Of a DNA stretch of 11,609 nucleotides, positions 1 to 11,609 are shown one piece after another. Below the pieces are notes generated by a model. The model worked only from the letters and a program-made list of their open reading frames with translations. It was not told the origin of the DNA and made no database searches. A program made the position numbers and the translations under genes. Numbering within the stretch: position 1 is the first letter of the stretch; the number at the start of each line of letters is the position of its first letter. The stretch is from a virus (Duplodnaviria > Heunggongvirae > Uroviricota > Caudoviricetes), in IMG/VR virus record IMGVR_UViG_2802429218_000006, positions 1-11,609 of that record; one strand, 5' to 3'.

Positions 1-12
1 GATCTTCCGCCA
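1..12 (+). tRNA. selC: 3'-terminal fragment of tRNA-Sec gene (selC): acceptor 3' strand, discriminator and CCA; also the attL core. The gene body lies upstream of the window
   Basis: GATCTTCCGCCA matches the 3' end of E. coli selC as I recall it (..GGTTCGACTCCTGTGATCTTCCGCCA). The upstream part of that sequence is duplicated at the window end. Confidence 0.55.
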
Positions 13-123
13 AACAGCATCCAGCCAGTTCCGAGATACTCCATAAAACCCTTTATATTCAATACGATGAATAATCGGTTTGTCCGTAATAGTCCGAGAT
101 AATCTCCCTGAATCCGCGAAAAA

Positions 124-143
124 TATGTATAGTAATGTGTATA
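124..143. promoter_or_regulatory. Candidate integrase arm-type binding sites (tandem TATGTATA / ATGTGTATA) in the int promoter region
   Basis: The same tandem motif pair recurs at 11517-11536 on the other side of the att core. An inverted copy (TTATACAC, 167-174) overlaps the int start codon. Confidence 0.4.
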
Positions 144-174
144 GATTTTTTATACGTAGTTTTCAGTTATACAC

Positions 175-1362
175 ATGGCTCTAACCGATATACAGATCAA
201 ACGTGCAAAACCACAAGACAAACCATACACATTGAACGATGGACAAGGTCTGTCATTGCTTATCAATCCCGATGGCTCGAAAGGCTGGCGTTTCCGTTTC
301 CGGTTTGCAGGGAAAGCGCGGTTAATGTCATTTGGCAGCTACGATTTAGTAAGCCTTGCAGAAGCACGTGAGAAGCGTGACGTCGCCCGTAAGCAGGTTG
401 CGAATGGCATTGATCCTGTAGAGGAACGCAAAGCTTCAAGACTCGCTCAAAAGCTATCAACAGAAAATTCTTTCGAAGCCATATGTCGAGAATGGCATAC
501 CAACAGAGCTGACCGCTGGACAGTGGCCTATCGAGAAGAAATCATTAAGACATTCGAGCAAGATGTGTTCCCGTTCATTGGTAAACGCCCTATCAGTGAA
601 ATCAAACCATTGGAACTGCTTGAGGTATTGCGACGAATAGAGAAGCGTGGCGCATTAGAGAAGACAAGAAAAGTACGTCAAAGATGCGGTGAGGTATTTC
701 GTTATGCAATCGTAACTGGCCGAGCTGATTACAATCCAGCACCTGATTTAGCTATCGCGCTGGCCGTACCCAAGCAAAAACATTATCCGTTCTTATCCGC
801 AGAAGAGTTACCTCATTTTATTCGAGATCTGGAGGCATATACCGGCAGTATCATTACTAAAAATGCTACAAAGATAGTTATGCTAACTGGTGTTCGAACA
901 AAAGAGATGCGCTTTGCTACATGGGATGAGATTGACCTTGAGAAGGGGATATGGGAAATCCCAGCCGAAAGGATGAAAATGCGCAGACCTCACATAGTGC
1001 CGCTTTCTACTCAGGTAATCGACCTTTTCAAGCAACTCAAGCCGATTACTGGTCACTACCCTTATATTTTTATTGGCAGGAACAACCGTAGTAAACCGAT
1101 CTCAAAAGAAAGTGTGTCACAGGTAATTGAGTTACTAGGTTACAAAGGACGTGCTACCGGTCACGGTTTTAGACATACAATGTCGACAATTTTACATGAA
1201 CAGGGATTTGATAGTGCTTGGATTGAAATTCAGTTAGCCCATGTAGATAAAAATAGTATTCGAGGTACTTATAATCATGCTCAATATCTTGATAATCGGA
1301 GAAATATGATGCAGTGGTATGCGCAGCATATATATGGAAAAGTTATACAAGAGTCTAAATAA
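175..1362 (+). CDS. int: P4-family tyrosine integrase
   Basis: 395-aa ORF with an N-terminal arm-binding-like region, then a catalytic core showing box I Arg (LTGVRTKE), HGFRH (His-x-x-Arg) and a C-terminal Tyr (IRGTYNHAQY). Sits immediately next to the selC-derived att core. Confidence 0.9.
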   Translation: MALTDIQIKRAKPQDKPYTLNDGQGLSLLINPDGSKGWRFRFRFAGKARLMSFGSYDLVSLAEAREKRDVARKQVANGIDPVEERKASRLAQKLSTENSFEAICREWHTNRADRWTVAYREEIIKTFEQDVFPFIGKRPISEIKPLELLEVLRRIEKRGALEKTRKVRQRCGEVFRYAIVTGRADYNPAPDLAIALAVPKQKHYPFLSAEELPHFIRDLEAYTGSIITKNATKIVMLTGVRTKEMRFATWDEIDLEKGIWEIPAERMKMRRPHIVPLSTQVIDLFKQLKPITGHYPYIFIGRNNRSKPISKESVSQVIELLGYKGRATGHGFRHTMSTILHEQGFDSAWIEIQLAHVDKNSIRGTYNHAQYLDNRRNMMQWYAQHIYGKVIQESK

Positions 1363-1402
1363 ATTACTCATGAAGAAATATAGTCAATTATTAGGATGAA
1401 AT

Positions 1403-3058
1403 ATGATTAGTGCAAAAAACATTCTTTTCAGCAGTCGACATACTGATGCTGATGTAACTTTACATATCAATAATGTTATAAGATACCCCAAAAAATATAT
1501 GAATAATCATATCTATATATTAGATATAGACATGTATATTCAGACTGAAGACATGAAAAATCAAGCATATATAGATAATGACATTAGAAGCCCCCTGAAA
1601 ATGCTATTTATTGGAGAGGAACTAACAGAGTCAACTTTATTTGACTTATTATCCCAATCAGAAATATCGCTTCATGAAGTTAAGGTTAAATATGAATTTG
1701 ATTATATCTGTCAGATGTCAGAAGATGGATATAGATACATCAACAATAAATTAGAAACAGTCGCTTCATTATCTTTACTTAGAGCTATTAAGGATTTTGG
1801 TGTAAACTACAATATTATAAGAAACAAATCCTTTCTAAAAAAATATTCAGACAAGATATTCTCTACGTTATTACTAGATAACACTTTCAGTTCTTATGCC
1901 TTTGAAAATGGCTATAAATATTTTAATGTCGATGATGGTGCCGTTTACCAATTACAGCCCCCAACAAAATTTATTATTTATGACGAAGAAAAACAGCCGT
2001 ATAAACTTAAGATGGAGAGTCTGTTAAATATTAATATACCTATTCATGCACTAATTGGTAAGAATGGTAGCGGGAAAACCTATTTAATTAATAAAATAAT
2101 CAAACAATCTATTTCAACTGACCTAGAAATAAGATCTTCTGGCGCAGTTTTTAGTCGAATGATAGTTTTATCAAATACAATAAATGATAAGTGCTATAGA
2201 CCGGCAAATATAACCAAAAACAAATTCAAGTTAAATAACTATCATTTTGTATCGTTAACATCAGAAAAATATTATAATAAGCTTTTCCCACGAGGGAAAA
2301 AGCTAACTCTATTTTCTTTATTAGAAAAAATACAGAAACGAGATTCTAATAAGCGAGGTAACTTTGAACAGGGGGATTTGCTTGATAGAGTTACTCAAGA
2401 TATTATTCCCGAGTTTTCTTTTTCCATTAAAACAAATCTTGGGGAGCATATTTACAATAGTTTTTTAGAGTTAACTAGACAATATGGATTAGTTAATTTA
2501 AACTCAAACTTAGACTTAATTACGAGTTCAGAAATCGAATATGCATTACCTGATGAAGATATCCATTTCTATAAAAATAATGAACCCTTTACCTTAAGCT
2601 CAGGGCAATTATCTTTTTTAGTTAGCATGTTTTCTCTAATCTCAACAATAGAGAGTAATAGTCTTATACTTATAGAGGAACCAGAAAATTTTTTACACCC
2701 AAGTTTATTAACACATTTTATAAACTCACTAACACACATTCTAAGAGATACTAATTCTATCGCAATTATGGCCACCCACTCTGCTTTGGTACTTAGAGAA
2801 ATCCCTTCAGCACAAATAACAATCCTACATAGAAGAGACAATATCACCAACTATAAAACACCGAATATTGAAACATTTGGTGCCGATACTCATCAAATAA
2901 TGATAGACGTTTTTGGTGATTTATACTCTAATGCGATATTTAGAGAAGAGCTATCAAACATTGCAAAAAACAAAACAATCGATGAATTATTAGTGCAGTA
3001 TGGTGATTTACCTTCTGATGTATTAAATAAAATCATCATGGAGAAAAATTCAAAGTGA
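1403..3058 (+). CDS. ABC-type (SMC-head-like) ATPase with a ~200-aa N-terminal extension of unknown function; first gene of the candidate defence cassette
   Basis: Walker A GKNGSGKT (aa 219-226, nt 2057-2080); ABC signature LSSGQ (aa 398-402); Walker B LILIEEPENFLHP (aa 421-433, nt 2663-); H-loop ATHS (aa 457-460). Shine-Dalgarno AGGA lies 7 nt upstream of the ATG. Strongly AT-rich codon usage unlike the backbone. Confidence 0.85.
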   Translation: MISAKNILFSSRHTDADVTLHINNVIRYPKKYMNNHIYILDIDMYIQTEDMKNQAYIDNDIRSPLKMLFIGEELTESTLFDLLSQSEISLHEVKVKYEFDYICQMSEDGYRYINNKLETVASLSLLRAIKDFGVNYNIIRNKSFLKKYSDKIFSTLLLDNTFSSYAFENGYKYFNVDDGAVYQLQPPTKFIIYDEEKQPYKLKMESLLNINIPIHALIGKNGSGKTYLINKIIKQSISTDLEIRSSGAVFSRMIVLSNTINDKCYRPANITKNKFKLNNYHFVSLTSEKYYNKLFPRGKKLTLFSLLEKIQKRDSNKRGNFEQGDLLDRVTQDIIPEFSFSIKTNLGEHIYNSFLELTRQYGLVNLNSNLDLITSSEIEYALPDEDIHFYKNNEPFTLSSGQLSFLVSMFSLISTIESNSLILIEEPENFLHPSLLTHFINSLTHILRDTNSIAIMATHSALVLREIPSAQITILHRRDNITNYKTPNIETFGADTHQIMIDVFGDLYSNAIFREELSNIAKNKTIDELLVQYGDLPSDVLNKIIMEKNSK

Positions 3059-3954
3059 GAATTTTATCTAAGCCAGAGGGTATTGATGATCTACTTAATA
3101 ATATAGATCTTAACTCATCTATTGATGCCTTTTTATCGCTCGATGAACCGACTGGAATTGCTGACTTAAGAAATAAAAAAAATGATCTCTTGAACGAAAT
3201 TGAGAATTATCACACTGAGATGATTGAACGAGGTCATTTATCACATAACACGAGAAAAAACTTCTCAAAATATAAATCCATACTTGAGTGGATTTATTAT
3301 CACCCAAGTCAGCGAAGAAAAACAGACTACATAAACTCGATACGAAAACTTTACGCCCAAAGTGGAACTCTATGTCCTTACTGTGGGGTTTCTCCTTGCA
3401 GGACATTAGACCATTACTACAACAAAGCTTTATTACCACAGTTTTCATTTCTTCCTGAAAACCTTATTCCGTGCTGTGGTGATTGTAATAGAGACAAGGG
3501 AGCAAAAAAAGCCTTTAGCAAATGGAGAAGATTTGTCAATCCATTCTATGATGATTTCTCATCGTTAGAAAAAAATGAACCTCTCATATATATAATTTTC
3601 AAAGAAAGACCAAGATCTAGAATTGACATGGAATATGTAATGACAGCCAATCATAATCTAGACTTTTTAATAAGAAAACAAATAAACTATCACATTAGAA
3701 CAGTAAGAATCCCTTTCTATCATCATGAAGCCATAAGCAATTCATTTTGGAGAAACGCGAAAGACCTAATAAAGTTTAAAAAATTAGTCACTGACGGTGA
3801 TATAGATAATACAATTTATGATAAAATCATTGATGGTTTCATAGGCAAAAACAATGCTATGAATTATGACTGGGAATATATTATTAGATATTCATTAGTC
3901 AAACTTCGTATTAATCACTGGATTTATAACAGCAACCTACCAAAATTAATGTAG
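3055..3954 (+). CDS. HNH endonuclease-domain protein; second gene of the candidate defence cassette
   Basis: Zinc-finger HNH core CPYCG..LDHYY..N..CCGDCNRDKG (aa 107-148, nt 3373-3498) flanked by ~100-aa N-terminal and ~150-aa C-terminal regions of unknown function. GTG start at 3055 overlaps the TGA stop of the ATPase (GTGA), indicating translational coupling. Same AT-rich composition as the ATPase gene. Confidence 0.85.
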   Translation: MRILSKPEGIDDLLNNIDLNSSIDAFLSLDEPTGIADLRNKKNDLLNEIENYHTEMIERGHLSHNTRKNFSKYKSILEWIYYHPSQRRKTDYINSIRKLYAQSGTLCPYCGVSPCRTLDHYYNKALLPQFSFLPENLIPCCGDCNRDKGAKKAFSKWRRFVNPFYDDFSSLEKNEPLIYIIFKERPRSRIDMEYVMTANHNLDFLIRKQINYHIRTVRIPFYHHEAISNSFWRNAKDLIKFKKLVTDGDIDNTIYDKIIDGFIGKNNAMNYDWEYIIRYSLVKLRINHWIYNSNLPKLM

Positions 3955-4144
3955 CTCCAAAGAATGCATTAGCCTTGATGGTATATTTCAGTAGCATTGA
4001 GGCTAGTGTAAGGCCTAACTGGCAGGTAGCATCGAACAAAATACAAGCGCATTTATTAATTCTCAATTAGGTTGTTTAAAAATGATTCGAAAATATTTCA
4101 CCTGCTTAGGAGAAAAGAAAAAACATTTATCACTGCCACGCGCA

Positions 4145-4163
4145 GTGCTTTCCCCGCCTCGCC
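4145..4163. other. cos site: 19-nt cohesive end of P2/P4 type
   Basis: Plus strand reads GTGCTTTCCCCGCCTCGCC, the reverse complement of GGCGAGGCGGGGAAAGCAC (the P2/P4 cohesive end as I recall it). Flanked by GC-rich hairpins at 4160-4230. Lies between the cargo and psu, as in P4. Confidence 0.8.
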
Positions 4164-4264
4164 CGCCCGCTTTGCGGGGCAGTTTTAATGCAGTTTCACT
4201 GACACGCTCAGGCCGCGCCGGGAATGGCGCGGTCTGCAGAAAATGAGGCAGGAAAACGCATGCA

Positions 4265-4297
4265 AAGCCATGCACCTTATCGATGCATGGCTTTTTT
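4265..4297 (+). terminator. Rho-independent terminator-like hairpin (10-bp perfect stem plus T6) between cos and psu
   Basis: AAGCCATGCA (4265-4274), 9-nt loop, TGCATGGCTT (4284-4293), then a T-run to 4297. The T-tail is on the plus strand, so it would stop transcripts coming from the cargo or cos side. Confidence 0.55.
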
Positions 4298-4327
4298 CAG
4301 TAAAATCGGACGGATTTTCGGGGAGTT

Positions 4328-4900
4328 TTACACAGACTGACATGATGCCAGTTGCGCACTTTTACGCGAAAAAATCATGTTCTGCGCAGGGGTGAATTTT
4401 TCACGGCTGTCATCCACCGAAGCCGCGTCAGGCCTGAATCCGATGGTCGTTAAAATGTCGCTATCCTGTGCGGAATAATTAATTTTTTCACCCTTTGCAA
4501 GCCAGGACAGAAGGGCTTCACGCAGGGCATCTGTGGCACGCTGTATGGCACAGTTTCGGGCAATGGCCGTCAGCTCACTGTAGCCCATCAGCTCCGGTGC
4601 CAGTGCCGCCGCCAGTGCTGTGCCGTGCTGCTGCATAAAATCATTCAGCCGGTCGCGGATGCTGATGTGCTGAACGGCTTCATGCGAACGAATATAACGA
4701 CCGGCGGCCTGATTCACCTGCCATTTTCTGACTTCGATAATATTGCGTAATTCGTCCAGGCGACTGACGTTTCTGCCTTCCCCGGACAGAAGCCGCAGAT
4801 ATTCCTGTTCGGCCGCAGCCAGCTCATTTTTGCGTTGCAGCCATGCTGCTTTGTTATTCTGACAGGTGTCAAAGGCCTGCTGTAAGGCTGTGCTTTCCAT
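4328..4900 (-). CDS. psu: Polarity suppression protein Psu (capsid decoration / Rho antagonist)
   Basis: 190-aa ORF, the same length as P4 Psu, in the P4 position as last gene of the sid-delta-psu operon next to cos. N-terminus MESTALQQAFDT... matches my recollection of P4 Psu. Confidence 0.85.
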   Translation of the reverse strand: MESTALQQAFDTCQNNKAAWLQRKNELAAAEQEYLRLLSGEGRNVSRLDELRNIIEVRKWQVNQAAGRYIRSHEAVQHISIRDRLNDFMQQHGTALAAALAPELMGYSELTAIARNCAIQRATDALREALLSWLAKGEKINYSAQDSDILTTIGFRPDAASVDDSREKFTPAQNMIFSRKSAQLASCQSV

Positions 4901-4973
4901 CGTTATCTCTTTCTCATCATGCTGAAGAATAAAAATACGGTGTGCGGCGACGGCCGGTGTTAACCGGCAGCCC

Positions 4974-5474
4974 TCATTCCAGACGCAGCGAATATGATTG
5001 TGTTTTTAAGCGTACTGGCGGCAGTTCCTGTTTTTCATGCAGGCTTTCTGCCAGTTCGTCCGGCGTGACCGGGCGGACAATGAAACGGTTGATGGTCTGA
5101 AGCGTTTTAAACACCAGACCACAGCCCGGATCCGTGCACACATAAAAACGCTCGGTGACTTCCTGAGACAGACGCCGCGATGTTCTTGACAGTGCAAGGC
5201 CTTTACATCTCCGACAACAATATCCGGTAACAAGCATTCTTTTCGGGCGTTTCATGCTACCGGAGGCTGACGTCAGTGAATCGCGGTATCTCTGTTTGCC
5301 TGAAATGTATTCCATTCCTGAATCTTTACAGTCAGAGAAAAAGCTTTCACTCGCTTCAAATGTCGCAGAGCAATAAATATTCCGGCACTGTGCAATCATT
5401 ATCTTGGTGCCATCGTCCATGAAATGTGCGCGACGGGTGTGAGCAACATGTCCACACGACGGGCAGTAAATCAT
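4974..5474 (-). CDS. delta: Delta, a tandem Ogr-type zinc-finger late transcription activator
   Basis: 166 aa (the P4 Delta length). The N-terminal half follows the P2 Ogr pattern (CPSCGH.AH.R..DGTK...C.N..CSATF) and a second Cys4 module sits in the C-terminal half (CCRRC...CTDPGCG). Its start overlaps the sid stop (ATGA). Confidence 0.9.
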   Translation of the reverse strand: MIYCPSCGHVAHTRRAHFMDDGTKIMIAQCRNIYCSATFEASESFFSDCKDSGMEYISGKQRYRDSLTSASGSMKRPKRMLVTGYCCRRCKGLALSRTSRRLSQEVTERFYVCTDPGCGLVFKTLQTINRFIVRPVTPDELAESLHEKQELPPVRLKTQSYSLRLE

Positions 5475-6205
5475 GACAGCAGTCCTCTGGCCTTAAGCTC
5501 TGCTCCCTGCTGGTCTATTTTGTCCTGCCACACCTTGCGCTGTGCCGGTGTGCCTGCCACCTCATAATCCATGTGCGGGAGTGTTGCCGCTGACAGTCCG
5601 GTCAGCCGGAGAACCGGCTCGCCGGTGAGGCTGATTTGCATCTGTTTAATTTTCTGTTCCAGCGATGATTTCACCTGCTGCATGACAGCCTTTTCCGGTG
5701 CGACGTAGCCCTGATGGCCGGTGGTGTTGGCGAGCGGATTTTCCTGTACCAGTATGCTCAGATGCATTGCCCGGACAAGCGCCTCACAGGTTTCATTCAG
5801 GGCGTGTTCCAGCTCATTCTCTGCATACAGACTCAGAAGGTGATGATGTGCCTTCCGGTAGGCGGTGGCCGTGCTGTCACACGCCCCTTTCAGGCGTTCA
5901 CGTTCAAAATTCAGCACCACGGCCAGATTGTCATATTCCTGTACCAGCTCCCGGCGTGCCACGCGCTCAATGTGGCGCTGTTTCAGCTCGTCGCTCAGGA
6001 CACCACCGGCTGCACGAAAGGCCGTGCGCCAGTCGTCAGCGTCGTTTCCGTCGGCCTGCGCCAGCGCATTTTTTTCCTGCTCTGCCCGTTCAATGGCCGT
6101 GACGGTCTCATCCATCAGGCGGGCGTTCTCAAGATGGGCGGCTCTGGCCTTTTCCAGTTGTGCCAGCGCGGGTTGCAGATATTCAGGGATGGTGTTGTCA
6201 GACAT
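5471..6205 (-). CDS. sid: Sid external scaffold / capsid size-determination protein
   Basis: The ATG at 6205 with a GAGGAG Shine-Dalgarno gives 244 aa, the P4 Sid length. The ORF track extends to a GTG at 6223 (250 aa), which I consider less likely. First gene of the late operon. Confidence 0.8.
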   Translation of the reverse strand: MSDNTIPEYLQPALAQLEKARAAHLENARLMDETVTAIERAEQEKNALAQADGNDADDWRTAFRAAGGVLSDELKQRHIERVARRELVQEYDNLAVVLNFERERLKGACDSTATAYRKAHHHLLSLYAENELEHALNETCEALVRAMHLSILVQENPLANTTGHQGYVAPEKAVMQQVKSSLEQKIKQMQISLTGEPVLRLTGLSAATLPHMDYEVAGTPAQRKVWQDKIDQQGAELKARGLLS

Positions 6206-6239
6206 TTTCCGGCTCCTCGTCACTTCAGGTTAAGAAAAT

Positions 6240-6295
6240 TGTGACGTACACCGGACAACAACACGACGCATTGCAGATGTGCCAGCCCTGACACA
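6240..6295. promoter_or_regulatory. Late-promoter region with two TGT-N12-ACA dyads: candidate Delta/Ogr binding sites for the divergent Psid and PLL promoters
   Basis: TGT(6240-6242)-N12-ACA(6255-6257) and TGT(6278-6280)-N12-ACA(6293-6295). The second is centred about 55 bp upstream of a plausible sid transcription start near 6230. The motif is short, so chance occurrence is possible. Confidence 0.4.
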
Positions 6296-6374
6296 GGAGA
6301 CTCATCCTCAGACCGGCAAGCCAGGAAAAGGTCGCAGGAAAAACCGGCTTACTGTTTGTTTTTTTATGTTTTAC

Positions 6375-6478
6375 TGTTCACCTCTGTTCACCATAAGAAA
6401 AAAGATAAGTAATACAGTAAGTTAAAGGGTGAGCAATCGCAGTAATGACTGTTCACCGTCTGTTCACCACTGTTCACC
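6375..6478. repeat. ori-like iteron cluster: five copies of the TGTTCACC octamer (type I iterons, alpha-binding), followed by an AT-rich stretch (6479-6570)
   Basis: TGTTCACC at 6375-6382, 6385-6392, 6450-6457, 6461-6468 and 6471-6478. The same octamer is reiterated in crr downstream of alpha, about 4.8 kb away. Confidence 0.75.
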
Positions 6479-6756
6479 CGTTCATGGACTTTTTGTGCTG
6501 TGTATTACTTTTTATTTTTATTAATTAACTGAAATAAATAAGAAAAAACAATTTGTATTTCACTATAATTTTTTCCAGCTCCTTCCAGAGCGTTTTAAAG
6601 CTATCTGGCGCTGATGTGCAAAAAACACACAGCAATTGTAAGGCTGCCGGAACAAATCCCCCCTGTTGCGTCTGCTGAAAATATTCACAAAATAAAGCGC
6701 TACCCGAAGCCGGACGGACTTATCCGGTGCTGTATGGACATTAACGAGGTAGCCCG

Positions 6757-7023
6757 ATGCAAGCTGTTTTTTCTTCCCCGTCTCCTGCCCCTGTGACGCC
6801 ACTGATGCCGCTGCCGGACATCACGCAGGAGCGTTTTTTACGTCTGCCGGAAGTGATGCACCTGTGCGGCCTGTCACGCTCGACCATCTACGAACTCATC
6901 CGTAAGGGGGAATTTCCGCCGCAGGTGAGTCTTGGCGGTAAAAATGTGGCCTGGCTGCACTCTGAAGTCACCGCATGGATGGCCGGGCGCATTGCCGGAC
7001 GCAAACGGGGGTACGACGCATGA
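6757..7023 (+). CDS. vis: Vis / AlpA-family helix-turn-helix regulator (excision and late-gene control)
   Basis: 88 aa (the size of P4 orf88/vis) with an AlpA-like HTH segment ([28 protein letters not shown]). GAGG Shine-Dalgarno 8 nt upstream. First gene of the plus-strand left operon. Confidence 0.75.
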
Positions 7024-7574
7024 TGATGCCTGTTCTGCAAAAACTCCCTTTTTCTGGCTTGCCTTTTTCCGGCATTTGCGGATATAGTTTTTCCGCTGTC
7101 GCAAAATCGGCAGCCGGGCGTAGGAACCCGAGTTACTTCAAGGCGACATATGACGCGCCATGCGTCTTTTTTTACGTCGTTGCTTCGGCACACCTGTTTT
7201 TCTGGCTGTGGTTTTTAAACCGTAGCCTCTGTCAGATAATGGTGGTCCGGGCGGGGCAGCCTTCGGGCTGGCCGGTTTCCTTGAAGGCCGGTATTCCTAC
7301 CCCCGTCCGGGCTACCACCCATGAGCGTAGGAACTCCAGTGGTAGCTGTAACTGTTACTTCAAGGAGGCTGCCATCATGGCTACAACCCTTACCCCCTCA
7401 CACCCTGAATTTGTCTTTGTGTTTGCGGCTGTCCGTCGCGCAGACCGTCATCCCCGTATCTGCATGCTTCGCACCGTCGCCGGTGATGAACGCAGCGCCC
7501 GCCGTTCCCTTGTCCGTGACTATGTGCTCTCCCTTGCTGCCCGTCTGCCGGTGGTGGAGGTGTCCCGTGCGTAA
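6975..7574 (+). CDS. Possible eta-like ORF (199 codons) that reads through the immunity-RNA region, with the kil-like ORF nested in the same frame
   Basis: A 600-nt open frame starting inside vis, upstream of the PLE-like promoter, and spanning the structured RNA region. Consistent with the nested kil/eta arrangement described for P4, but the protein is low-complexity and could be an artefact of GC-rich sequence. Confidence 0.3.
7059..7088 (+). promoter_or_regulatory. Candidate sigma-70 promoter (PLE-like) driving the immunity / left operon
   Basis: TTGCCT (7059-7064), 18-bp spacer, TATAGT (7083-7088), about 30 bp upstream of seqA. Confidence 0.45.
7118..7143 (+). promoter_or_regulatory. seqA-like target site for the immunity RNA
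   Basis: GCGTAGGAAC..TTACTTCAAGG. The two blocks are complementary to CCTTGAAG (7279-7286) and TTCCTAC (7294-7300) inside the structured RNA. Confidence 0.55.
7241..7320 (+). ncRNA. cI: CI-like immunity RNA (P4-type antisense RNA carrying seqB); boundaries approximate
   Basis: Highly structured segment: GGTGGTCCGGGCGGGG pairs with CCCCGTCCGGGCTACCACC (one G-T wobble and a 3-nt bulge), plus an internal CAGCC-TTCG-GGCTG hairpin. The internal seqB blocks are complementary to both flanking seqA and seqC. Confidence 0.5.
7325..7365 (+). promoter_or_regulatory. seqC-like target site overlapping the ribosome-binding site of the kil-like ORF
   Basis: GCGTAGGAAC (7325-7334) and TTACTTCAAGG (7355-7365) repeat the two seqA blocks. 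The second block runs straight into the AGGAGG Shine-Dalgarno of the ORF starting at 7377. Confidence 0.55.
7377..7574 (+). CDS. Small kil-like protein (65 aa); resembles the Ash/Icd-like small proteins of P4-type prophages
   Basis: Strong AGGAGG Shine-Dalgarno 8 nt upstream of the ATG. First ORF after the immunity RNA. Sequence [25 protein letters not shown]... Confidence 0.55.
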
Positions 7575-7854
7575 TAAAAAAGCCCCTCAGACCGTCTCAG
7601 CGCGTCATGACGCCCGTGAACACCTCAGCATTGAGGCTTACCATAAGCTCAACCGCGCCAGCGCCGTATCCCAGTTTGTTGGGGGTGATTTGATTCACCG
7701 TGAACTCTCCGGCCTGCATCAGCTCTACATTCCGCATATTTTCAGTTACCTGAATGAAGATATTGATTTTGTGCTGAATGAACTGAAAGCCAAAGGCCTG
7801 TGCCGCGATTTTCTCGCCCAGCAGAAAGACCGGGGAGACAGGACGCATGTTTGA
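7567..7854 (+). CDS. Epsilon-sized small protein (95 aa) with a GTG start; position and size match P4 epsilon, the derepression protein
   Basis: No in-frame ATG exists. The GTG at 7567 is preceded by GGAGG at 6-nt spacing and overlaps the stop of the kil-like ORF. Product length is exactly 95 aa. Identification is by synteny and size only. Confidence 0.45.
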
Positions 7855-8308
7855 TTTTCCCCAGCCCGGTGAGATTTACCGTTCTGCCGGTTTTCCCGAT
7901 GTGGCCGTGGTCGGCATTCTGGAAGACGGTATTCCGTGGGAAATGCCGTACCGCTGCCCGGACATTGTCTGGAACCCGTACCGCCGTAAATTCAGTATCC
8001 TTGTGCGTATCCTCGCTGACGGGCGCACCACAGACATCCCGCTGGGGCGTTTTCTGCGGGAATTTACCTGTGACCGTCCTGACCTGTTCAAACGCAGCCC
8101 CGTAAACCGGCATGCGGTACTGAAAGAAATGGCCGGAGACCCGGAATTACAGAAATGGCGGGAGAAATATCTGGATATTTACCCGCAGGACCCTGTTCCG
8201 GTCAGCCGGGCGGCACCGGTGGCGCGGGAATGGCGGGAAATTCCCCGCACGGAGCCTGACCCGGCCCCCCCCCCCCGGATAACAGTTACCGCAATTATCT
8301 GTAATTAA
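7847..8308 (+). CDS. Hypothetical protein, orf151-like by position (153 aa); contains a C12 homopolymer near its 3' end
   Basis: ATG overlaps the stop of the preceding ORF (ATGTTTGA). The C12 run at 8265-8276 encodes the PAPPP segment of the product. Confidence 0.6.
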
Positions 8309-8439
8309 AAAACGACACCCGAAAAATTAAATGTGCGTATTCGCGCAGGGATACGCACGTCTTCAGGAGACGCAGATATGTCTTATCAGTTAATGCAACC
8401 GGCACGGAATGCAGTCATCTGTCACAGGGAGGAAAGCAA

Positions 8440-8760
8440 ATGAAAACACCCTTACCGCCCGTCTTACGCGCTGCCCTTTACCGTCGCGCTGTCGCCTGTG
8501 CCTGGCTGACCGTGTGCGAACGTCAGCACCGCTACCCGCATCTCACCCTTGAGTCACTGGAGGCGGCCATCGCCGCTGAGCTGGAAGGCTTTTATCTGCG
8601 CCAGCACGGTGAGGAAAAAGGGCGCCAGATAGCCTGTGCCCTGCTGGAAGATTTAATGGAATCCGGCCCCCTGAAGGCCGCGCCGTCGCTGTCCTTTCTC
8701 GGGCTGGTTGTGATGGATGAACTCTGTGCCCGTCACATAAAAGCGCCGGTACTGCACTGA
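8440..8760 (+). CDS. cnr: cnr-sized protein (106 aa); copy-number-control candidate
   Basis: GGGAGG Shine-Dalgarno. 106 aa equals P4 cnr (orf106), and it lies immediately upstream of alpha as in P4. Identification is by synteny and size only. Confidence 0.5.
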
Positions 8761-8774
8761 AGGAGAACAACACC

Positions 8775-11108
8775 ATGAAAATGAACGTAACCGCCACCGT
8801 CAGCCATGCGCTCGGCCACTGGCCGCGTATTCTCCCGGCGCTGGGGATTCAGGTGCTGAAAAACCGTCATCAGCCCTGTCCGGTCTGTGGCGGGAGTGAC
8901 CGCTTCCGTTTTGATGACAGGGAGGGGCGCGGCACCTGGTACTGCAATCAGTGTGGTGCCGGTGACGGCCTGAAACTGGTTGAAAAGGTGTTTGGTGTTT
9001 CCCCGTCCGACGCGGCCGCAAAGGTGGCTGCCGTGACCGGCAGTCTGCCACCGGCTGACCCGGCAGTGACGGCTGCCGCCGGTGCTGAAACAGACGCTGC
9101 CCGGAAGAACGCCGCCGCACTGGCACAAACCCTGATGGCGAAAACCTGTCCCGGAACCGGTAACGCCTACCTGACCCGCAAGGGCTTTCCCGGCCGGGAA
9201 TGCCGGATGCTGACCGGCACACACAGAGCCGGTGGCGTGAGCTGGCGCGCCGGTGACCTTGTGGTGCCACTGTATGACGACAGCGGCGAACTGGTTAACC
9301 TTCAGTTAATCAGTGCTGACGGCCGTAAGCGCACCCTGAAAGGCGGACAGGTCAGGGGCACCTGTCACACCTTTGAAGGACAGAATCAGGCCGGAAAACG
9401 TCTGTGGATAGCGGAGGGATACGCGACCGCACTTACCGTGCATCACCTGACCGGTGAAACGGTGATGGTGGCGCTTTCTTCCGTGAATCTCCTTTCTCTG
9501 GCCAGCCTTGCCCGGCAGAAGCATCCGGCCTGTCAGATTGTCCTTGCCGCAGACCGTGACCTCAGCGGTGACGGCCAGAAAAAAGCCGCCGCAGCCGCAG
9601 ATGCGTGTGAAGGTGTTGTTGCCCTGCCGCCGGTCTTCGGTGACTGGAATGATGCCTTCACGCAGTACGGCGGGGAAGCCACCCGTAAGGCCATTTATGA
9701 TGCCATCCGGCCACCGGCTGAAAGCCCGTTCGACACCATGAGCGAAGCGGAGTTTTCCGCCATGAGTACCAGCGAAAAGGCCATGCGTATCTATGAGCAT
9801 TACGGCGAGGCGCTCGCGGTCGATGCCAACGGCCAGCTTCTGTCCCGTTATGAAAATGGTGTCTGGAAGGTGCTGCCACCACAGGACTTTGCCCGGGATG
9901 TGGCCGGGCTGTTTCAGCGGCTGCGTGCGCCGTTCTCCTCCGGGAAGGTGGCCTCCGTGGTGGACACCCTGAAGCTGATTATTCCGCAGCAGGAAGCCCC
10001 CTCCCGCCGCCTGATTGGCTTTCGTAACGGCGTGCTCGACACGCAGAACGGCACGTTCCACCCGCACAGTCCGTCACACTGGATGCGCACCCTGTGCGAT
10101 GTGGATTTCACCCCGCCGGTGGAAGGGGAAACGCTGGAAACCCACGCCCCCGCGTTCTGGCGCTGGCTTGACCGTGCCGCCGGTGGCCGTGCGGAAAAAC
10201 GCGACGTGATTCTGGCCGCACTGTTTATGGTGCTGGCAAACCGCTACGACTGGCAGCTCTTTCTGGAGGTGACCGGTCCCGGCGGCAGCGGCAAAAGTAT
10301 CATGGCCGAAATAGCCACCCTGCTGGCCGGGGAGGATAACGCCACGTCGGCCACCATCGAGACGCTGGAATCCCCGCGTGAACGTGCCGCGTTAACTGGC
10401 TTCTCACTGATACGCCTGCCGGACCAGGAAAAATGGAGCGGCGACGGTGCCGGACTCAAGGCCATCACCGGCGGCGATGCGGTGTCCGTTGACCCGAAAT
10501 ACCGGGATGCATACTCCACGCATATCCCGGCGGTAATTCTGGCCGTGAACAATAACCCGATGCGCTTCACCGACCGCAGCGGCGGCGTGTCACGCCGGCG
10601 GGTGATTATTCACTTCCCGGAACAGATAGCCCCGCAGGAGCGCGACCCGCAGCTTAAGGACAAAATCACCCGCGAGCTGGCGGTCATCGTGCGTCACCTG
10701 ATGCAGAAGTTCAGCGACCCGATGCTCGCCCGGTCACTGCTTCAGTCCCAGCAGAACTCAGACGAGGCACTGAACATCAAACGGGATGCCGACCCGACGT
10801 TTGATTTTATCGGCTATCTGGAAACCCTGCCGCAGACCAGCGGCATGTATATGGGGAACGCCAGTATCATCCCGCGTAATTACCGTAAATACCTCTATCA
10901 CGCCTATCTGGCCTACATGGAGGCAAACGGCTACCGGAATGTACTCAGTCTGAAAATGTTCGGGCTGGGGCTGCCGGTGATGCTGAAGGAATACGGACTG
11001 AATTACGAGAAGCGCCATACCAAACAGGGGATACAGACCAACCTGACGCTGAAAGAGGAAAGCTACGGCGACTGGCTGCCAAAATGTGACGACCCTGCAA
11101 CAACCTGA
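8775..11108 (+). CDS. alpha: Alpha primase-helicase replication protein
   Basis: 777 aa (the P4 alpha length). N-terminal zinc-ribbon primase motif CPVCGGSDRFRFDD..WYCNQCG, a TOPRIM-like region, and a C-terminal helicase Walker A GPGGSGKS. AGGAG Shine-Dalgarno upstream. Confidence 0.92.
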   Translation: MKMNVTATVSHALGHWPRILPALGIQVLKNRHQPCPVCGGSDRFRFDDREGRGTWYCNQCGAGDGLKLVEKVFGVSPSDAAAKVAAVTGSLPPADPAVTAAAGAETDAARKNAAALAQTLMAKTCPGTGNAYLTRKGFPGRECRMLTGTHRAGGVSWRAGDLVVPLYDDSGELVNLQLISADGRKRTLKGGQVRGTCHTFEGQNQAGKRLWIAEGYATALTVHHLTGETVMVALSSVNLLSLASLARQKHPACQIVLAADRDLSGDGQKKAAAAADACEGVVALPPVFGDWNDAFTQYGGEATRKAIYDAIRPPAESPFDTMSEAEFSAMSTSEKAMRIYEHYGEALAVDANGQLLSRYENGVWKVLPPQDFARDVAGLFQRLRAPFSSGKVASVVDTLKLIIPQQEAPSRRLIGFRNGVLDTQNGTFHPHSPSHWMRTLCDVDFTPPVEGETLETHAPAFWRWLDRAAGGRAEKRDVILAALFMVLANRYDWQLFLEVTGPGGSGKSIMAEIATLLAGEDNATSATIETLESPRERAALTGFSLIRLPDQEKWSGDGAGLKAITGGDAVSVDPKYRDAYSTHIPAVILAVNNNPMRFTDRSGGVSRRRVIIHFPEQIAPQERDPQLKDKITRELAVIVRHLMQKFSDPMLARSLLQSQQNSDEALNIKRDADPTFDFIGYLETLPQTSGMYMGNASIIPRNYRKYLYHAYLAYMEANGYRNVLSLKMFGLGLPVMLKEYGLNYEKRHTKQGIQTNLTLKEESYGDWLPKCDDPATT

Positions 11109-11124
11109 CCATCATGACTCATCT

Positions 11125-11149
11125 GACCGGCATCTGCCGGTCTTTTTTT
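11125..11149 (+). terminator. Rho-independent terminator downstream of alpha
   Basis: GACCGGC (11125-11131), loop ATCT, GCCGGTC (11136-11142), then T7 (11143-11149): a perfect 7-bp stem. Confidence 0.8.
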
Positions 11150-11166
11150 ATCCCTGAATTCCCCGA

Positions 11167-11468
11167 AGGTGAACAATCCACTGTTCACCCTTCACCGTAT
11201 ATTCACTCGTTATCACACTGAAATTAAAAGAGAAAAACGAAAGGTGAACAGTGTGAACAATCAAATCAAAAAAAACTTTTTTTCTCCCTGTGTGATTTCA
11301 GTACGGGGGATTAATCACCGGTATGAGTCACACCGGCAGAATGCCGGAGGTGAAGAATCGAATGTTCACCCTTCACCCATTATTCACTACCTATCATACT
11401 GAAATAAAAGGAGAAAAAAGAAAGGTGAACAGTGTGAACAGTTCTTTCGAAAAAAAATTTTTTTCCTG
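11167..11468. repeat. crr (cis replication region): two ~121-bp direct repeats (11167-11287 and 11348-11468, period 181 bp), each carrying TGTTCACC / GGTGAACA iterons and ending in an A8/T8 tract
   Basis: The repeats align along their whole length with a few substitutions. Iterons at 11168-11175, 11182-11189 and 11243-11250, plus the equivalent positions in the second copy. Confidence 0.8.
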
Positions 11469-11516
11469 AGTTAACGTGCGTGAAGATACGTGTAAAAATT
11501 AATCGATAGATATTAT

Positions 11517-11536
11517 ATGTATAAGGATGTGTATAA
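11517..11536. promoter_or_regulatory. Candidate integrase arm-type binding sites (ATGTATAA / ATGTGTATAA) on the attR side
   Basis: Same tandem motif pair as at 124-143 on the attL/int side. Confidence 0.4.
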
Positions 11537-11593
11537 ATGAATTATAATAGAAAAATATAAACGATTTGAATCAAATGGTTATATGGCAATTTT

Positions 11594-11609
11594 GACTCCT
11601 GTGATCTTC
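11594..11609. repeat. attR core: direct repeat of the selC 3' end (GACTCCTGTGATCTTC, truncated by the window edge)
   Basis: Matches the selC segment immediately 5' of the bases at window positions 1-12. The T at 11593 where selC has C marks the edge of identity. Confidence 0.6.

Follow-up and report, generated by a model that had tools for sequence, protein, structure and literature searches.

A conserved and apparently undescribed N-terminal domain in the Septu-like ATPase of a P4-like satellite

PtuAB systems and the locus under study

In characterised PtuAB systems, an oligomer of the ABC ATPase PtuA restrains the HNH nuclease PtuB until a trigger arrives. PtuA of the characterised E. coli Septu (PDB 8EE4/8EEA, and Septu Ec-B88) lacks an N-terminal domain and has an N-terminal P-loop, with Walker A lysine K43 and Walker B residue D316, whereas the P-loop of retron Ec78 PtuA occupies residues 93-100, behind an N-terminal extension of 63-65 amino acids (aa) that comprises three helices and two strands. 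This extension docks a regulator, namely the complex of reverse transcriptase (RT) and non-coding RNA (ncRNA), and deleting the extension abolishes defence. Here we analyse a stretch of viral DNA of 11,609 nucleotides (nt) (IMG/VR record IMGVR_UViG_2802429218_000006, positions 1 to 11,609; hereafter the window), in which a Septu-like ABC ATPase precedes an HNH protein and carries its Walker A lysine at K225, after a domain of 177 aa (hereafter the N-domain).

The closest catalogued relative is PDC-M01 of PADLOC, since both window proteins match the PDC-M01A and PDC-M01B models best and their genes are adjacent and overlapping. The likeness extends over the N-domain, as residues 18-533 of the ATPase align to positions 17-526 of 552 in PDLC04239 (E 5e-44), while PDLC04238 matches the ATPase at E 1.5e-48 and its N-terminal 218 aa alone at E 1e-6. 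PDC systems are described as unpublished candidates, and PDC-M01, the calls of which are reported to coincide with Septu calls, is a catalogue entry with no described domains, structure or phenotype; a literature search for PDC-M01 and for the RefSeq protein WP_032153997 found no characterisation. Furthermore, most PDC-M01 members carry a W-[ND]-D-[FY]-G motif, whereas the clade of the window ATPase does not.

With Septu the locus shares an ABC ATPase followed by an HNH nuclease and no RT, and the PtuA model PDLC00282 covers ATPase residues 106-535 (E 1.3e-36). When the full-length structural model was compared with the PDB by Foldseek, the top matches consisted only of PtuA chains (retron Ec78/Eco7/Ec83 and E. 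coli Septu, E 1e-10 to 1e-6). The sequence resemblance is far more restricted: among solved PtuA proteins, resemblance does not reach beyond the Walker B region (E 0.0075 for 8EE4), and with the NCBIfam PtuA equivalog the ATPase attains 36.7 bits where the cut-off is 500. The proteins also differ in their layout, as the spacing from Walker A to Walker B is ~273 residues in E. coli Septu (K43-D316) and ~300 in Ec78 PtuA (93-391), but ~200 in the window ATPase, and the catalytic His of PtuB is residue 75 in E. coli Septu but 120 in the window protein. The PtuA proteins of type I-A retrons (Ec78/Eco7, Ec83/Eco4) are the best fold matches of the full-length model (E 1e-10) and the only ones with a characterised N-terminal extension; in comparison, the window domain is larger (~180 aa) and two-lobed. 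Moreover, in type I-A retrons and Septu type II an RT gene and an ncRNA lie upstream of ptuA, whereas the window cassette contains neither an RT open reading frame (ORF) nor an RT domain.

PARIS AriA, Gabija GajA and OLD belong to the same ABC/AAA_15-AAA_21 superfamily and share the defence context. Yet the matches of PADLOC AriA and of OLD in the PDB are weak, fall on the C-terminal half of the ATPase and are many orders weaker than those of PDC-M01A and PtuA. These systems use Toprim or DUF4435 nucleases, fused or adjacent, whereas the partner in the window is an HNH protein, and neither the ATPase nor this partner had a Toprim or DUF4435 match in Pfam or PADLOC. The initial annotation of this DNA had placed the P-loop of PtuA within the first ~40 residues; this describes the structurally studied E. 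coli Septu (K43), but neither Ec78 PtuA (93-100) nor the branch to which the window ATPase belongs.

The N-terminal domain

The ATPase gene and its parts, all on the plus strand, are laid out as follows.

1393..1396, plus strand: Shine-Dalgarno sequence AGGA, 6 nt before ATG 1403, read from the sequence
1403..3058, plus strand: Septu-like (PADLOC PDC-M01A) ABC ATPase, 551 aa, by PADLOC, Pfam AAA_21 and PDB fold matches
1403..1717, plus strand: N-domain lobe 1 (residues 1-105), predicted beta-sheet, AlphaFold2 predicted local distance difference test (pLDDT) ~85-95
1718..1933, plus strand: N-domain lobe 2 (residues 106-177), predicted bundle of six helices, by AlphaFold2 and conservation
1934..1966, plus strand: low-confidence linker from N-domain to ATPase (residues 178-188), by pLDDT
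1967..2056, plus strand: canonical ABC beta-strands before the P-loop (residues 189-218), model strands 189-193, 199-203 and 214-218
2057..2080, plus strand: Walker A GKNGSGKT (residues 219-226, lysine K225), by translation
2594..2680, plus strand: ABC signature LSSGQ (residues 398-402) through Walker B LILIEE (421-426)

Translation confirms that 218 residues (nt 1403-2056) precede GKNGSGKT, as had been proposed initially. To resolve this region, the full-length protein was modelled with AlphaFold2 from an alignment of 32 sequences, and the first 190 residues were modelled separately. The full-length model reached a mean pLDDT of 83.9 and a predicted template modelling score (pTM) of 0.81, and residues 1-190 alone reached 87.1 and 0.82, so that the N-terminus is modelled confidently both on its own and in context, in two lobes. 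Lobe 1 contains strands 7-9, 18-32, 35-46, 63-71 and 100-105 together with helices 76-85 and 90-95. Between the second lobe and the ATPase, pLDDT drops under 50, in the full-length model at residues 178-181 and in the domain-only model at 179-185. Residues 1-177 are thus predicted to form an autonomous two-lobed domain, followed by a linker and then the ABC ATPase. Rad50 and ABC-F chains, whose own P-loops lie at about residues 30-45, align at residues 189-218; these are hence normal ABC strands, and the truly extra module comprises residues 1-177 plus the linker, ~185 aa rather than 218.

The remainder of the ATPase appears ordinary in sequence, with its catalytic motifs intact. G219, N221, G222, G224 and K225 are invariant across the family, as is H459, and S399, G401, E426, P427 and E428 are invariant among 32 full-length homologues (down to ~20% identity), which served, together with a set of 123 family members, to assess conservation. 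The Walker B region was aligned with those of Ec78 and Septu PtuA. From Walker A to Walker B (219 to 421) the spacing is ~200 residues, and the AlphaFold2 model contains no long coiled-coil, showing just a pair of short helices (303-316, 323-334) at the place of the 56-residue coiled-coil domain of Ec78.

That the N-domain belongs to the translated protein is indicated by several features of the gene. An in-frame TGA at 1397-1399, two codons upstream, leaves ATG 1403 as the only possible full-length start, and a chance ORF is excluded by the length of the frame, 551 codons in DNA of 29-31% GC. RefSeq annotates the same start for the 551-aa protein WP_032153997 (‘AAA family ATPase’), which six complete E. 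coli genomes encode with at least 99.4% identity; homologues from 88% down to ~20% identity start at the equivalent position and are co-linear from residue 1. A purine-rich motif resembling a Shine-Dalgarno sequence stands at the equivalent place in five of seven orthologue loci examined (L004, L005, L009, L010, L011) and is not evident in the other two (L007, L008). The ratio of nonsynonymous to synonymous substitution rates (dN/dS) for residues 1-185 is 0.19 against an 88%-identical orthologue (P0003) and 0.11 against a 76%-identical one (P0005), compared with 0.13 and 0.08, respectively, for the ATPase; the N-domain is under purifying selection.

Within the N-domain the two lobes differ in conservation. 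Among the 32 full-length homologues Y110 is invariant and L126, D131 and A166 nearly so, while in the 123 members the first beta-hairpin turns at a W-[ND]-D-[FY]-G motif (region of residues 20-35), with W at 84% and D at 90%; these members also conserve Y110 (98%), D131 (98%) and R159 (94%), as well as R111, L126, F153 and A166. The helical lobe (106-177) thus holds family-wide residues, of which Y110, R111, L126, D131, F153 and A166 are kept in the clade of the window ATPase. The beta lobe, instead, varies more than any other segment whichever pair is compared (with P0005 it shares 51% identity, the helical lobe 78% and the ATPase core 84%), and its dN is ~2.5 times that of the rest of the protein. 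The clade, which comprises sequences from Enterobacteriaceae, Aeromonas and Rheinheimera, has no Trp in residues 1-105 and has lost W-[ND]-D-[FY]-G; it also carries Asp at residue 159 (nt 1877-1879), where 94% of relatives have Arg. Together, these two changes suggest a remodelled functional site. The N-domain is acidic (isoelectric point, pI, 5.36; net charge -5), as in the family at large (median pI 5.5, net charge -4), which argues against non-specific binding of nucleic acid.

Searches for a known identity of the domain were uniformly negative. Neither the N-terminal 218 aa nor the first 185 aa matched Pfam, NCBIfam or PHROGs; when 27 family members were scanned singly against Pfam, no family was common to even two of them; phmmer and profile searches with the N-domain against PDB sequences returned nothing; and no structural match was obtained in the PDB or, at E ≤ 0.001, by Foldseek in BFVD, a collection of predicted viral structures. 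An assignment to a domain known to Pfam, NCBIfam, PHROGs or, by phmmer and profile, to PDB sequences was therefore rejected. We are nearly certain that the N-domain is a real, conserved and previously undescribed domain of a Septu-like ATPase. The extra module of the initial annotation is in keeping with a region that is folded, conserved and without relatives in Pfam, NCBIfam or the PDB; that this part would be the likeliest to be new holds for the undescribed module, but not for its uniqueness, as the domain is the signature of a large catalogued branch.

Family, cassette and carrier

The extent of this branch emerged when 1.84 billion representatives were searched exhaustively with an HMMER profile of the N-domain, with clusters defined at 50% identity. 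The search yielded 472 clusters at E ≤ 0.001, nearly all of them ABC ATPases of ~550 aa, and 156 of the clusters were found at E ≤ 1e-10. Among the best 150 of the 472, 125 possess a Walker A motif (median position 220), the remaining 25 are almost all fragments cut by contig ends or frameshifts, and no stand-alone or differently fused copy of the N-domain was seen. A few relatives (P0124, P0126, P0166, P0217) add AbiJ_NTD3, MrcB_N or DUF4062 upstream of the core formed by N-domain and ATPase. In addition, a full-length alignment scan of a genome collection recovered at least 18 distant relatives, and the hidden Markov model (HMM) of the N-domain was positive in six of the matches listed (L014, L015, L016, L017, L019 and L020), which belong to Actinomycetota, Chloroflexota, Bacteroidota and Proteobacteria and correspond to loci of Streptosporangium, a member of Chloroflexota, Flavobacteriales, Acidovorax, Asticcacaulis and Palleronia. 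Distant N-domain members match the PDC-M01A profiles end to end. On these profile matches, the N-domain is the hallmark of a whole branch of PtuA-type ATPases and not a peculiarity of the window locus.

Two further observations concern the family. Input or effector modules seem to accumulate at the N-terminus of its ATPases. In addition, phrog_8066, a prophage family of unknown function with 522 positions, aligns to ATPase residues 104-533, helical lobe included, from which it follows that members of this branch are also encoded by phages.

Downstream of the ATPase lies its partner.

3055..3954, plus strand: PtuB-like HNH nuclease (PADLOC PDC-M01B), 299 aa, by PADLOC PDC-M01B

Its start (3055) overlaps the ATPase stop (3058), and the two ORFs, 1403-3058 and 3055-3954, are the sole genes between int and psu. 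The HNH core spans about residues 107-149, with C107, C110, H120, N136, C141, C144 and N145. The protein matches the PDC-M01B model PDLC04264 at E 7e-27 and, weakly, Ec78 PtuB and a Cas9 HNH domain, besides an HNH endonuclease family of PHROGs; the NCBIfam PtuB model scores 20.7 bits against a cut-off of 150, and with PtuB chains in the PDB only the HNH core aligns (E 0.02-0.05). The gene after the ATPase encodes an HNH protein (277-301 aa) in every genomic context examined, that is, in P4-like satellites of Citrobacter, Klebsiella and Enterobacter-type hosts and, outside P4, in islands of Pseudomonas, Arsukibacterium and one further genome, and the two distant partners that were translated have a C-x2-C...DH...N...C-x2-CN core in common. 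By gene order and profile matches, ATPase and HNH protein are best assigned to a two-gene Septu-like cassette, the PADLOC candidate PDC-M01.

The cassette is flanked by the genes of a P4-like satellite.

175..1362, plus strand: P4-type tyrosine integrase, left flank of the hotspot (Pfam Arm-DNA-bind_3, Phage_int_M, Phage_integrase)
4328..4900, minus strand: psu, gene for the polarity suppression protein and right-hand flank of the hotspot (Pfam Psu, E 1e-88)
4974..5474, minus strand: P4 delta (Pfam Ogr_Delta)
5471..6223, minus strand: gene in the sid position, by gene order as in L001, L002 and L005
8775..11108, plus strand: P4 alpha-type primase-helicase (Pfam Zn_Ribbon_Prim, Toprim_3, D5_N, Pox_D5)

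The backbone also encodes an AlpA-type regulator, Ash and DUF5375; the integrase stop lies 40 nt upstream of the ATPase start, and in the E. coli copies the element adjoins tRNA-Sec by RefSeq annotation. Placed in the int-psu defence hotspot of a P4-like satellite at tRNA-Sec, the cassette represents AT-rich cargo. Its GC content (29-34% across 1403-3954, against 50-63% in the P4 backbone, with sharp shifts at ~1300 and ~4000) is consistent with recently acquired foreign cargo. This hotspot, with Septu among its cargos, was described by Rousset et al. 2022, whose Table S1 lists the exact window ATPase as uncharacterised cargo. The label ‘Septu (Doron et al., 2018)’ is given there to group 17, which comprises 80 loci; we found that the ATPase of this group carries its Walker A at residue 211 and is matched by the N-domain HMM at E 5e-12. 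Thus, the domain is undescribed, whereas the branch that bears it is already catalogued, both as PDC-M01 and as ‘Septu’ in P4 hotspots.

Several observations on the carrier may be added. A gap of 373 nt (3955-4327) separates the HNH stop from the psu stop; the GC jump falls there, and the sole ORF in the gap encodes 70 aa (4063-4275, minus strand) and has no match in Pfam. It may hold the junction of cargo and backbone or a terminator, of which a simple scan detected nothing; the promoter and terminator scan of 1000-4400 gave fewer sites than shuffled sequence and is hence uninformative. The delta protein of the window has 166 aa and, like that of P4, is a fused dimer with two Ogr_Delta stretches, whereas in an E. 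coli locus with a near-identical cassette (L001) the delta-like gene (12513-12758) is annotated as 81 aa, which indicates that the same cargo sits in different P4-like backbones. In E. coli MSI001 (NZ_CP076645.1, 58704-62455), one of the six E. coli genomes, the cassette match is split into two pieces over 3.75 kb with an IS5-like ISKpn26 transposase inside, and this copy is probably inactivated; the protein collection also contains frameshifted fragments of the same gene (P0094 and P0095). In a relative from Citrobacter youngae (L005), a CBASS-type pair of CD-NTase and Cap15-like genes (2097-3849) lies just upstream of the satellite integrase, an arrangement that indicates that the attachment site of the satellite is surrounded by a composite defence island.

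Proposed role of the domain

We propose that the N-domain serves as the regulatory input of a PtuA-PtuB complex. The variable beta lobe would serve to recognise a trigger of phage origin, most probably a protein, and the conserved helical lobe, packed on the ATPase, would pass the signal to the nucleotide-dependent dimer or oligomer state; through this change of state the HNH nuclease would then be freed or switched on, and the infection would be stopped. Position, pattern of variability and obligate fusion make a regulatory input the most likely role, and the regulator-docking extension of Ec78 PtuA makes a sensor or interaction role reasonable. The variability of the beta lobe, the acidity of the domain and the sensor- or effector-type domains (AbiJ_NTD3, MrcB_N, DUF4062) found upstream in some relatives were likewise counted in its favour. 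To this reading as a whole, comprising the N-domain of a PtuA-type ATPase, the satellite cassette and the regulatory input, we assign a probability of about one half; for the role itself, trigger sensing or regulation, the odds are slightly less than even, and the mechanism is our inference.

Some points speak against the proposal. That the beta lobe evolves faster could be due simply to weaker constraint; the clade of the window ATPase has lost the most conserved motif of the N-domain, so that the function of this motif may not apply there; and no functional characterisation of the cassette or of any PDC-M01 member was found in the literature. The sensor or protein-interaction module of the initial annotation is a reasonable candidate with respect to fast evolution and the Ec78 analogy.

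The main competing explanation, which we consider less likely but the strongest of the rivals, is that the N-domain acts as a structural or oligomerisation scaffold, either for a higher-order PtuA assembly or as a platform for PtuB, and compensates for the shorter insertion between Walker A and Walker B, where characterised PtuA proteins use a coiled-coil for PtuA-PtuA contacts. The reduced spacing (~200 residues, compared with ~300 in Ec78 and ~273 in E. coli Septu) and the two short helices in place of the Ec78 coiled-coil speak for such compensation, and both the obligate fusion to the ATPase, the domain never being found alone among the clusters examined, and the full-length pTM, which suggests fixed packing on the ATPase, point the same way. 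Yet a scaffold leaves unexplained why the beta lobe varies and why some relatives bear additional sensor-like domains upstream. Scaffold and sensor roles are not mutually exclusive.

A more far-reaching form of the sensor proposal, which we regard as speculative and rather doubtful, holds that the N-domain is an unseen fold and the direct receptor for a phage protein in a distinct and widespread Septu subtype (PDC-M01), in which trigger recognition has moved from the surface of the ATPase or its oligomer to an N-terminal module. The pocket would have been remodelled in the P4-satellite clade (W-[ND]-D-[FY]-G lost, R159 replaced by D) for another trigger, and the beta lobe would be a swappable specificity cassette.

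It is improbable, in turn, that the N-domain is a very divergent version of a fold or family already described and overlooked by our searches, given the lack of a Foldseek match at E ≤ 0.001 in BFVD, of a Pfam match common to any two of the 27 members and of any return from the profile search of PDB sequences. Lower still is the probability that it binds nucleic acid, be it to supply the HNH nuclease with its DNA or tRNA substrate or to recognise phage DNA. PtuAB systems do act on DNA or tRNA, Ec78 PtuA contacts multicopy single-stranded DNA (msDNA) as well as ncRNA, and a few relatives have the DNA-reading MrcB_N at their far N-terminus; but the domain is acidic, in Ec78 it is positively charged ATPase loops that make the nucleic-acid contacts, structure search and Pfam on the 27 members detected no nucleic-acid-binding fold, and the presence of a separate MrcB_N upstream argues against DNA reading by the N-domain itself. 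The weakest alternative, an annotation artefact in which nt 1403-2050 are an untranslated leader and an internal Met near the P-loop, such as M204, is the true start, has a negligible probability: internal Met codons are present (M33, M44, M51, M67, M105, M204) and the promoter scan gave no convincing promoter between int and the ATPase ORF, but internal initiation was ruled out by the correctly spaced Shine-Dalgarno sequence with a stop two codons upstream of ATG 1403, by a dN/dS of 0.1-0.2 across residues 1-185, by homologues of 20-88% identity conserved from residue 1, by the confidently predicted fold, from which a start at M204 would remove two of the three ABC beta-strands preceding the P-loop, and by the fact that frames of this length do not arise by chance in DNA of 29-31% GC.

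The structurally studied PtuA proteins have either no N-terminal module or a short one that docks a retron, whereas at least 472 clusters in several phyla carry an undescribed domain of ~180 aa with no detected structural relative. If the domain were only a scaffold, the finding would amount to annotating a domain, as a new Pfam-type family, in a candidate system already catalogued. The cassette itself is tractable, being 2.5 kb long, derived from E. coli and situated in a satellite hotspot with known anti-phage cargo. For stand-alone Septu, the N-domain is an obvious candidate for the missing input device by which infection would be sensed.

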